8,294 nt of DNA from a virus (lineage: Monodnaviria; Loebvirae; Hofneiviricota; Faserviricetes; Tubulavirales), in the IMG/VR virus record IMGVR_UViG_2541047895_000001, positions 1 to 8,294 of that record. One strand, given 5' to 3'. Below, in pieces: positions 3,685 through 5,298 of this stretch. The translations under genes were made by a program, and so were the position numbers. Positions within the stretch are counted from its first letter, which is position 1. Every line of letters starts with the position of its first letter. The notes below the pieces were generated by a model. The model saw nothing but the letters and a program-made list of their open reading frames with translations, did no database searches and was not told the origin of the DNA.

Positions 3685-5298
3685 TTGGCATATATATTTA
3701 TTTTCCTTGTTGCTGTTTTTTCATTTAATTCTGCATATGCAGCTTCAACGACAGAATTTCTTGGTGATGCAGGTTCCGGTACCCGTGTTGCAAGGGCCGG
3801 TGTAGCTCCACCCTGTACTACTGGATATGCATCCTGCTCAGGTGATACGTTTTATTGTACTACGTCTTACAGCGATACTAATCATCTTTTGGGTATGCCA
3901 TTTTTACTGGTTACAGGTAACTGGATCTCTTATAAGTCTTACCATTTTGAGGATGGTGTTAAGGTTTATTCTCAGTGTAAGGATAGCTTTTACGGTCAAT
4001 ATTTTGGTGCTTCGTATTCAGCTAAACCCACGGAAGAGGTTTGTTTATCCCGTCCTGAGCTTAGTAATGTTTCTTTGTCAGGTGTTTATAAGGATGATAA
4101 AGGGAATAAATATGTCACCATTCATGGATGCATTTATGAGGCAACGGGTGTTGCTATTATTTGTCCCGATGGTACAGATTCTTGTACCGCTACCTGGAAA
4201 CCTGTAACTGTTGATCCGGCTTATTCTGATAAAGAAGATACAGAAGATAAAGGTGATAGCGGAGATACTGATGATAAAGGGAATAACGGTAATACTGACG
4301 GTGGTGATAATTCCGGCGGTTCGTCCGGTGGCAGCACTTCTGGCGGTTCCTCCGGCGGCAGTACTTCCGGCGGTTCTTCCGGTGGCAGTACTTCCGGCGG
4401 TTCATCTGGTGGCAGTACTTCCGGCGGTTCGTCCGGCGGCAGCACTTCCGGCGGTTCGTCCGGTGGCAGCACTTCTGGCGGTTCATCCGGTGGTAGCACT
4501 TCTGGCGGTTCATCCGGTGGCAGCACTTCCGGCGGTTCATCCGGTGGCAGCACTTCCGGCGGTTCGTCCGGTGGCAGCACTTCCGGCGGTTCCTCCGGTG
4601 GCAGCACTTCCGGCGGTTCCTCCGGTGGCAGCACTTCCGGTGGATCATCCAGTGGCAGCACTTCCGGCGGTTCGTCCGGCGGCAGCACTTCCGGCGGCAG
4701 CACTTCCGGTGGTTCATCCGGTGGCAGCACTTCCGGCGGTTCGTCCGGTGGCAGTACTTCCGGCGGTTCATCCAGTGGCAGTACTTCCGGTGGTTCATCC
4801 AGTGGCAGCACTTCCGGTGATGATGATGGCTGGCTTGGTGATATTCTTGGCTGGTTGCAGAGAATCTGGAGTTCAGTGAATGATCTGAACAGTGTATTTT
4901 CTTTTTCTCAGACTGATGTAAATAATGCACTGAATACTTTTGATGACCAGTTGAAAGATATTGTCAATAGTGATGATGAAGATTCAACAGATGATTATGA
5001 TTCTTTAATTTCTGGATTTATTGATAAGTTACCGAAGGAGTGGTTGTTTATTGATTTTGATAAGTTATTTTTCCCTTCTCAACAACAACGGCAAATAGGT
5101 GCGCAACCTATTGAGGTTAATTTTTCATTTTCTCTTCCTGTGATTGGGGTTGTGCATTTTTCAATTGACACAACCGATTTTTCATCAGCATATGATTTGT
5201 TGTTGAGGCCTGTTCTTGAATATTTTATTTATGTATTGACTATTTTTCGGCTTTATTTTGTTTATCGTCGTGCACTGATGCGTCATGCTGAGGTCTAG
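3685..5298 (+). CDS. gIII: Minor coat / adsorption protein (pIII-like) with long Gly/Ser-rich repeat linker
   Basis: TTG start with strong RBS GGGGGTGAG (3674-3682); signal peptide MAYIFIFLVAVFSFNSAYA; Cys-rich N-terminal domains; about 167-aa (SGGSSGGST)n linker; C-terminal FSID...hydrophobic anchor...basic tail resembling the Ff pIII C-terminal domain. Confidence 0.85.
   Translation: MAYIFIFLVAVFSFNSAYAASTTEFLGDAGSGTRVARAGVAPPCTTGYASCSGDTFYCTTSYSDTNHLLGMPFLLVTGNWISYKSYHFEDGVKVYSQCKDSFYGQYFGASYSAKPTEEVCLSRPELSNVSLSGVYKDDKGNKYVTIHGCIYEATGVAIICPDGTDSCTATWKPVTVDPAYSDKEDTEDKGDSGDTDDKGNNGNTDGGDNSGGSSGGSTSGGSSGGSTSGGSSGGSTSGGSSGGSTSGGSSGGSTSGGSSGGSTSGGSSGGSTSGGSSGGSTSGGSSGGSTSGGSSGGSTSGGSSGGSTSGGSSGGSTSGGSSSGSTSGGSSGGSTSGGSTSGGSSGGSTSGGSSGGSTSGGSSSGSTSGGSSSGSTSGDDDGWLGDILGWLQRIWSSVNDLNSVFSFSQTDVNNALNTFDDQLKDIVNSDDEDSTDDYDSLISGFIDKLPKEWLFIDFDKLFFPSQQQRQIGAQPIEVNFSFSLPVIGVVHFSIDTTDFSSAYDLLLRPVLEYFIYVLTIFRLYFVYRRALMRHAEV
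4312..4818 (+). repeat. Tandem 27-bp coding repeat (about 19 units, one truncated) encoding (SGGSSGGST)n inside gIII
   Basis: Read directly: TCCGGCGGTTCGTCCGGTGGCAGCACT-type units repeated head-to-tail with mostly synonymous third-position differences. Confidence 0.9.

Follow-up and report, generated by a model that had tools for sequence, protein, structure and literature searches.

What maintains a long, regular Gly/Ser repeat inside the attachment protein of a filamentous phage? The question is raised by IMG/VR record IMGVR_UViG_2541047895_000001, whose 8,294 nucleotides (referred to here as the window, that is, the whole stretch of DNA that was analysed) comprise one complete unit of a filamentous-phage genome of ~8.3 kb, in which the gene for a pIII (g3p)-type attachment protein contains an array of 27-bp units, repeated in tandem and translated as (SGGSSGGST)n. 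The array very probably specifies a long, intrinsically disordered Ser/Gly/Thr tether in the pIII protein of a filamentous Escherichia coli prophage of the dif region. Its anatomy, the homology of the domain upstream, the synonymous differences among its units and the variation of its copy number between strains bear on this reading, as they do on several rival explanations that are considered below.

The array and the pIII protein that contains it

The gene, a single open reading frame (ORF), and its surroundings comprise the following features.

3641-3658 plus T-run, plus strand: intrinsic-terminator-like hairpin past the major coat gene (stretch from hairpin to Shine-Dalgarno sequence, 3641-3681)
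3674-3681, plus strand: strong Shine-Dalgarno sequence GGGGGTGA, just ahead of the pIII TTG start
3685-5298, plus strand: pIII/g3p-type attachment protein gene, 537 amino acids, TTG start, single uninterrupted ORF (ORF map, families)
3685-3741, plus strand: predicted signal peptide MAYIFIFLVAVFSFNSAYA, residues 1-19 (read from the sequence; putative cleavage site)
3742-4023, plus strand: N-terminal domain, residues 20-113, four Cys, no family match, weak IKe alignment from residue 73
4024-4212, plus strand: N1-like domain, residues 114-176, four Cys, homologue of the N1 domain with which g3p of IKe, fd and If1 binds TolA
4213-4311, plus strand: acidic, Asn/Gly-rich pre-linker, residues 177-209 (sequence, Tandem Repeats Finder)
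4312-4818, plus strand: tandem array of 27-bp units, (SGGSSGGST)n (Tandem Repeats Finder, in-frame cutting)
4819-5295, plus strand: C-terminal domain, 159 amino acids, residues 379-537, beginning with the conserved joint DGWLGDILGWLQRIW
5209-5265, plus strand: hydrophobic anchor PVLEYFIYVLTIFRLYFVY, then basic residues (read from the sequence)

Cut in frame from position 4312, the array consists of 14 full units (4312-4689), a 15-bp unit encoding SGGST (4690-4704), four last full units (4705-4812) and a 6-bp stub encoding SG (4813-4818), in total 507 bp or 18.8 copies (18 full units, the 15-bp unit and the stub), all in frame within the ORF 3685-5298. Tandem Repeats Finder reports the 27-bp period at 4311-4697 (14.3 copies, 91% matches, score 613), finds it resumed at 4690-4819 and also calls the same array at periods of 54 and 81. 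The translation (residues 210-378) amounts to 169 residues, 78 Ser, 72 Gly and 19 Thr, without any other amino acid; 15 of the 18 full units read SGGSSGGST and three SGGSSSGST, and the G+C content is 66% in the array versus 32-45% in the remainder of the gene. An earlier reading of this DNA from its letters alone (the sequence-only reading) had already given the coordinates and the unit correctly, with ~19 copies and ~167 residues. The pre-linker just upstream contains a degenerate repeat that is also of 27-bp period (4238-4298, 2.3 copies, 79% matches), encoding DTEDKGDSG / DTDDKGNNG. In strain EC12 and in an IMG/VR relative an additional copy of this pre-linker repeat is found together with a GNLSGGGVSGGSSGGDN segment, and the pre-linker therefore appears to evolve by unit duplication as well.

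The identification of the gene as pIII, also proposed by the sequence-only reading, is supported by its position among the phage genes and by several matches of residues 114-176. Among PDB sequences, this N1-like domain matches IKe (4eo1, E=3.9e-11), fd (1fgp, 1e-8), an fd N1-TolA fusion (1tol, 1.5e-6) and If1 (2x9a, 7.5e-5), in addition to the fd structure 2g3p; it also matches Pfam family Phage_Coat_A (PF05357, E=2.6e-7, 30.7 bits versus a curated cut-off of 20.8) and PHROG 'attachment protein' families. By this homology, the protein would be expected to use TolA. A family of unknown function, phrog_17820, matches both the N and C parts of pIII and is the sole family covering the C-terminal domain. 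The C-terminus reads PVLEYFIYVLTIFRLYFVYRRALMRHAEV, a hydrophobic membrane anchor followed by basic residues, and the Gly-rich linker, judged flexible from its composition alone, separates the receptor-binding part from the C domain. The TTG start lies 3 nt past GGGGGTGA and just downstream of the coat-gene terminator, both in the window and in every pIII homologue from complete E. coli genomes, an arrangement that would suit a weakly expressed gene, as with gene III of Ff and IKe.

The architecture of the protein is that of IKe (Lineavirus) g3p: in both, a signal peptide, an N-terminal domain, a TolA-binding N1-type domain, one Gly-rich linker and a C-terminal anchor domain follow one another. 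The N1-type domain of IKe is the best solved-structure match, tblastn gives 32% identity over residues 73-174 of the window pIII, and a terminator and a ribosome-binding site ahead of a non-ATG start are present at the annotated junction of IKe genes VIII and III. By the IKe domain order, the N-terminal domain (residues 20-113) is a candidate primary-receptor binder. In the IKe precursor (434 amino acids), the N1-type segment (~residues 135-195) is followed by the only long Gly-rich stretch (208-263), which gives a linker of about 56 residues, irregular (GGDT/GGGSS-type), whereas the window has 169-179 residues of regular nonapeptide units. The N-terminal and C-terminal domains of the two proteins lack significant similarity, and IKe is a non-integrating phage of 6.9 kb with a pII-type Rep, unlike the window phage, with its Phage_GPA-type Rep and its location in the dif region.

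The Ff-type architecture (N1-G1-N2-G2-CT) was not found in the window pIII, where the N1-like domain comes second (residues 114-176) and the linker is single. The g3p of Ff phages (M13/fd/f1) also has flexible (E)GGGS repeats between the receptor-binding domains and the C domain, with units that differ synonymously, and its N1 is homologous to the N1-like domain (41% identity over 65 residues). However, Ff g3p contains two linkers (about 19-23 and 39-45 residues), with N1 first and N2 second, as opposed to one linker, 3-4 times longer, whose nine-residue unit contains Thr and lacks Glu.

Variation and selection among the units

The 18 full units occur in 14 distinct nucleotide versions, yet in only two peptide versions. 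Across them, 8 of the 9 third codon positions are variable versus 1 of the 18 first or second positions (approximate Fisher P=3.5e-5), and synonymous changes account for 10 of the 11 variant alleles against ~31% expected (approximate binomial P=6e-5), the sole replacement being Gly to Ser, which keeps the S/G/T composition. In pairwise comparisons between units, the mean proportion of synonymous differences (pS) is 0.28 and that of nonsynonymous differences (pN) is 0.016, a ratio of 0.056. These statistics use the window and one further locus (L001) alone, with all units included; counts based on regular expressions for the relatives are biased to conserved peptides. The 14 nucleotide versions and the near-exclusive synonymous change therefore argue that the units are not a recent expansion of one unit but old, with a peptide composition under purifying selection. 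Other linker types of the prophage family show the same bias, as do the (E)GGGS units in M13, and it is therefore a general property of such linkers. The sequence-only reading had stated that the units differ mainly at synonymous sites, had attributed this to selection on the peptide rather than to recent slippage alone and had suggested a dN/dS-style check across the units; the check, as run here, agrees with both statements.

The Gly/Ser codons also create long ORFs in other frames, spurious products that the sequence-only reading had anticipated.

4190-4930, minus strand: by-product ORF, 246 amino acids
4221-4811, minus strand: by-product ORF, 196 amino acids, of the type annotated by RefSeq as WP_062865521.1 in related genomes
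4211-4879, plus strand: by-product ORF, 222 amino acids

The idea that the second of these, an opposite-strand overlapping gene with VLPPDEPPE repeats, is the selected product is barely credible. This ORF is open and annotated, and 7 of the 11 variant alleles are silent in its frame too; however, this antisense -1 frame has its third codon positions in common with the sense frame, from which it takes over much of its silent variation, and it suffers four non-silent changes versus one in the sense frame. In the relatives, the lengths of the open antisense frames merely track array length, as Gly/Ser codons generically yield stop-free antisense frames. Neither the array nor the stretch just 3' of it was found to contain a promoter-like site on the minus strand; the only such match on that strand lies ~120 bp outside even the longest antisense ORF. 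An origin of the synonymous pattern in the antisense ORF was rejected on the grounds of the shared third positions, the larger number of non-silent changes and the passive scaling with array length, and the sense frame was preferred for having the fewest replacements and for linking, in every relative, two homologous domains.

It is also quite improbable that the repeat acts mainly as DNA, either in the structure of the single-stranded DNA (ssDNA) genome or as a homologous 'joint' for module exchange between co-resident prophages, with the peptide as a tolerated passenger. As ssDNA, the array is predicted to fold into a series of short imperfect hairpins (-113 kcal/mol), better than dinucleotide shuffles do (z=-6.5), but such a score is expected for any CCGG or GGC/GCC repeat, and shuffles of this kind are a weak control and a poor null for repeats, so it was not taken as evidence of function. 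The hairpins are probably a by-product of the CCGG, GCC and GGC content of the Gly/Ser codons, with a bearing on slippage in a single-stranded replicon. With regard to module exchange, pIII is a mosaic of N domains, linker units and C domains, of which at least two, four and three types, respectively, are variously combined (window 4150-4230 and 4819-4890 compared with loci L003-L011 and L016-L021), the linkers of relatives whose N or C modules differ are built of different units (GGGSSGGSS, GGGSS/GGGNS or SGGSSGSGGSGSG), and the joints flanking the linker (...WKPVxVDPxxSD and DGWLGDILGWLQRIWxSVNDLN) are conserved. The linker region may be a place of module exchange, although the break points could equally lie in the conserved joints, and the synonymous-only pattern speaks for selection on protein composition rather than for a role of the DNA itself.

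Several points weigh against the reading of the array as a selected tether in a pIII protein. Comparisons between units are linked by duplication, and possibly by gene conversion, and do not represent independent events, so that the P-values given above are approximate. As third positions are common to the antisense and sense frames, the synonymous test backs the sense frame only jointly with the homology evidence. AlphaFold2, run without an alignment on the N-terminal 209 residues, gave an unusable model (predicted local distance difference test, pLDDT, 35.5); the available homologues of this part are at least 87% identical. Finally, the C-terminal domain has no sequence match to the f1 pIII C domain (8b3o) or to any solved chain, phmmer against PDB sequences yielding chance-level matches only and Pfam no match, so that the assignment is based here on position and topology.

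Copy number, linker length and the reach of the head

Copy number was compared across related prophages by representing each distinct unit as one letter. The window reads ABCDEAFGHAIIJEKLMNOP, the prophages of strains 2015C-4136CT1 (both tandem copies) and 377323_2f read ABCDEAFGHIIJEKLMNOP, one 'A' unit fewer, and both copies in EC12 read ASFFGTHETHMUP, so that the strings have end units in common but differ in internal order. The copies number 18.8 in the window and 17.8, 12.2, about 11 and about 10 in the other strains, the last two values coming from alleles with the same unit type in an IMG/VR uncultivated viral genome (UViG) and in protein P0019. The missing unit was placed as follows.

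4540-4566, plus strand: 27 bp absent from the prophages of 2015C-4136CT1 and 377323_2f, which are nearly identical in other respects (alignment placement), equivalent to unit 'A' at 4555-4581

Over 8.3 kb, the window and NZ_CP027550.1 (2015C-4136CT1) differ by no single-nucleotide polymorphism but by one 27-bp unit, in addition to one 1-bp indel at 418, and units are therefore gained or lost faster than point substitutions accumulate. Perfect direct repeats in the array reach at most 47 bp, at the I-I unit pair adjoining the 27-bp indel, whereas a homogeneous array of this size would give ~480 bp of perfect homology.

A mis-assembled expansion or collapse of the array is highly improbable. Short-read assemblies do fail at this repeat, as the sequence-only reading had warned: the clusters labelled 'partial', starting or stopping inside the repeat, are 4 of 5 for proteins with the N domain and 13 of 14 for those with the C domain, a cluster of 66 members on a 1.4-kb contig has the flanks joined via only 5 units, and one IMG/VR contig stops inside the array. 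However, two independent complete genomes show a unit string that lacks exactly one unit but is otherwise the same, the two tandem prophage copies in NZ_CP027550.1 are in agreement, and a single site, the synonymous third position of codon 4, distinguishes the extra unit from either neighbour, as would fit a simple deletion or insertion of a unit.

The linkers of all proteins were measured in one way, counting as linker any stretch in which 10-residue windows contain at least 70% G/S/T. In about 17 family members they then span 34-179 residues, that of the window being the longest at 179, compared with 23+45 in M13, 17+31 in If1 and 56 in IKe. The linker is, as had been claimed, far longer than those of Ff and, as had been thought likely, variable between strains; 'exceptionally long' holds true relative to the classic phages, whereas within the prophage family the window is at the top of a continuous range, and long Gly/Ser linkers are a trait of the entire family. 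The other pIII alleles of this family (RefSeq 'hypothetical proteins' and IMG/VR UViGs) have the same gene position, TTG start and conserved joints, and Gly/Ser linkers of 34-132 residues formed by tandem units with synonymous variation; they differ in the unit types listed above and in their shorter arrays. Two distant C-domain relatives have irregular D/S/G/T-rich linkers of ~140-185 residues, as estimated by eye. In all pIII alleles seen, the reading frame runs on from the N into the C domain and length alone varies; phase-variable on/off behaviour was not found, the units being of 27 or 15 bp, all multiples of three.

For a linker of 169 residues the contour length would be ~64 nm and the worm-like-chain root-mean-square (rms) distance ~7.6 nm, compared with 14.8 and 3.7 nm for the f1 distal linker; the rms estimate uses a persistence length of 0.45 nm, which comes from Förster resonance energy transfer (FRET) work on GS linkers. 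In the proposed mechanism, the hydrophobic tail would anchor pIII first in the inner membrane and later in the tip of the virion, and the linker would give the two-domain head free movement some way off the tip, a longer tether allowing it to search a much larger volume; the head could in principle reach periplasmic TolA with the tip still outside the outer membrane. Ff linkers are disordered in the virion and their length is relevant to infectivity (PMC10175506). The Gly-rich linkers of f1 are invisible in cryo-electron microscopy, its distal linker of 39 residues is disordered and spans up to 14.8 nm, and the distance from N1N2 to the C domain must be kept for high infectivity (PMC10175506). 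At the DNA level, the array would evolve by gain or loss of whole 27-bp units via slippage or unequal recombination, changes that would preserve the reading frame and outpace point substitution, while purifying selection would hold the peptide strictly to S, G and T and synonymous sites would drift, a drift that would shorten the stretches of perfect homology too.

A stronger claim, that linker length is adaptively tuned, is doubtful. The linker would then be a fast-evolving determinant of 'reach', matched, for example, to how thick the O-antigen or capsule of the host is, or to how far the primary receptor lies from periplasmic TolA in the absence of a retractile pilus, and unit gain and loss would be a mechanism of host-range contingency. 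The rate of unit change relative to point substitution and the range of lengths among related prophages would agree with this, as would the longer linkers of window-type N domains (100-179 residues versus 34-124 with the other N type, in too few genomes to count), the effect of head-to-C-domain distance on infectivity in f1 (PMC10175506) and a 64-nm contour that would exceed the thickness of the envelope. However, the distribution of lengths is broad and continuous even within one N-domain type, like drift in a permissive range, and a correlation with serotype is precluded by the few complete genomes, only 4 of 5,426 carrying this N-domain type. Both this spread and the rapid turnover of units speak for loose constraint beyond a certain minimum, and the exact length of the tether is probably loosely constrained. 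Slightly more doubtful still is the combined proposal that the linker is a fast-mutating, in-frame 'length dial' for the reach of the receptor/TolA-binding head, with the repeat and its joints also serving as a module cross-over site; if true, a filamentous phage that does not depend on a pilus could by such a dial cross layers of O-antigen or capsule of varied thickness or span the envelope to TolA.

The prophage family and its annotation

Apart from a repressor-like gene, the main genes listed for the window are all on the plus strand, in the order Rep, ssDNA-binding-sized ORF (between Rep and coat), coat, pIII, pVI-like, Zot/pI and secretin.

296-478, minus strand: repressor-like gene, 60 amino acids, phrog_2503 (ORF map, PHROG)
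572-2593, plus strand: Phage_GPA-type replication protein (ORF map, family match), followed by a 141-amino-acid protein and small ORFs
3383-3625, plus strand: major coat protein, 80 amino acids (phrog_1646)
5301-5663, plus strand: pVI-like protein (phrog_1944)
5667-6878, plus strand: Zot/pI assembly protein (ORF map, families)
6988-8217, plus strand: secretin (ORF map, families)

The 1-bp indel at 418 falls inside the repressor-like ORF, a gene that is annotated in the neighbouring tandem copy and unannotated in the aligned copy of NZ_CP027550.1. The pIV-like secretin contains an irregular Ser/Gly/Thr-rich stretch of its own (residues ~132-170, window about 7380-7500), ahead of its Pfam Secretin match (residues 257-404).

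In strain 2015C-4136CT1 the prophage is a tandem dimer located between hipBA and ydeQRST-like fimbrial genes, that is, in the dif region. The E. coli dif 28-mer, searched with up to 3 mismatches, has no match in the window, which begins with a dif-like half-site pair (1-31, TGCGCATAATGTGACACGCGTTATGTTGAAA) and has a second pair in inverted orientation (70-93, reverse complement GTGCGCACAATGACGTTATGT); the two pairs flank a GC-rich hairpin with a T-run (33-68). Positions 1-93 look like a folded attP of the CTXphi/YpfPhi type for integration by XerCD. YpfPhi and CUS-1 integrate at dif, form tandem prophages and have inverted XerC/XerD-like sites (PMC4266046), and the inoviruses of this type (from Yersinia pestis and E. 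coli K1) resemble the window phage in having about 8-9 kb, a location in the chromosomal dif region, tandem copies and a putative inverted pair of XerC/XerD-like sites, a likeness of size, location and sites. Conjugative plasmids of E. coli and Klebsiella carry unannotated DNA that is 88-92% identical to window 5-93. In strain E300010 (NZ_CM128601.1, locus L006, 1434-3249) hipA is separated from the related prophage by a second, distinct replication module that encodes a 'replication initiation factor domain-containing protein', which suggests two different filamentous elements stacked at the dif region.

The relatives of the window are unannotated E. coli prophages. A megablast search of the whole window against 50,697 phage records gave no match, whereas 117 of 5,426 complete E. 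coli genomes gave matches, seven of them covering at least 80% of the window. The C domain, searched exhaustively with HMMER against 1.84 billion representatives, matched only 9 proteins, whose sources are E. coli, Salmonella and a few metagenomes, P0025 being a spurious match; no relative emerged when one genome per species was scanned with a 5-sequence C-domain alignment. To judge from these searches, the pIII C-domain family is small and nearly restricted to E. coli and Salmonella. Prophages of E. coli UTME-13, JNE25-005, JNE25-003 and UTAK-18 share only the left arm (1-3007, Rep and the 141-amino-acid protein, ~90% identity), and a 'TolA C-terminal domain-containing protein' is annotated beneath the match, which is intriguing given the TolA-binding-type domain in pIII.

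Two complete RefSeq genomes, annotated with the Prokaryotic Genome Annotation Pipeline (PGAP), split the pIII gene (L001 6894-8270 and L002 6893-8269, equivalent to window 3685-5298) into three pieces: an N-terminal pseudogene fragment, the antisense 187-amino-acid 'hypothetical protein' WP_062865521.1 inside the repeat, and a 140-amino-acid C-terminal ORF, WP_021559720.1. In relatives with shorter linkers, pIII is called whole, as a 'hypothetical protein'. Because RefSeq splits the gene, an antisense ORF is called in the repeat and most entries are truncated there, surveys of E. coli inoviruses and of receptor-binding proteins would under-count or mis-read pIII unless long reads are used.

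The linker can be regarded as an extreme-length example of the well-known g3p Gly/Ser linker in a poorly annotated E. coli prophage family, unsurprising to the specialist, and the current picture of pIII function is unchanged by it. For protein engineering, it offers a long spacer that a pIII-type protein naturally tolerates: 169 S/G/T residues, already diversified synonymously, whose repeats are less perfectly homologous than those of a uniform array. For the biology of the family, the linkers of 34-179 residues on a common scaffold form a natural series, usable to study how tether length affects the entry of filamentous phages, an effect hitherto studied only through engineered Ff.

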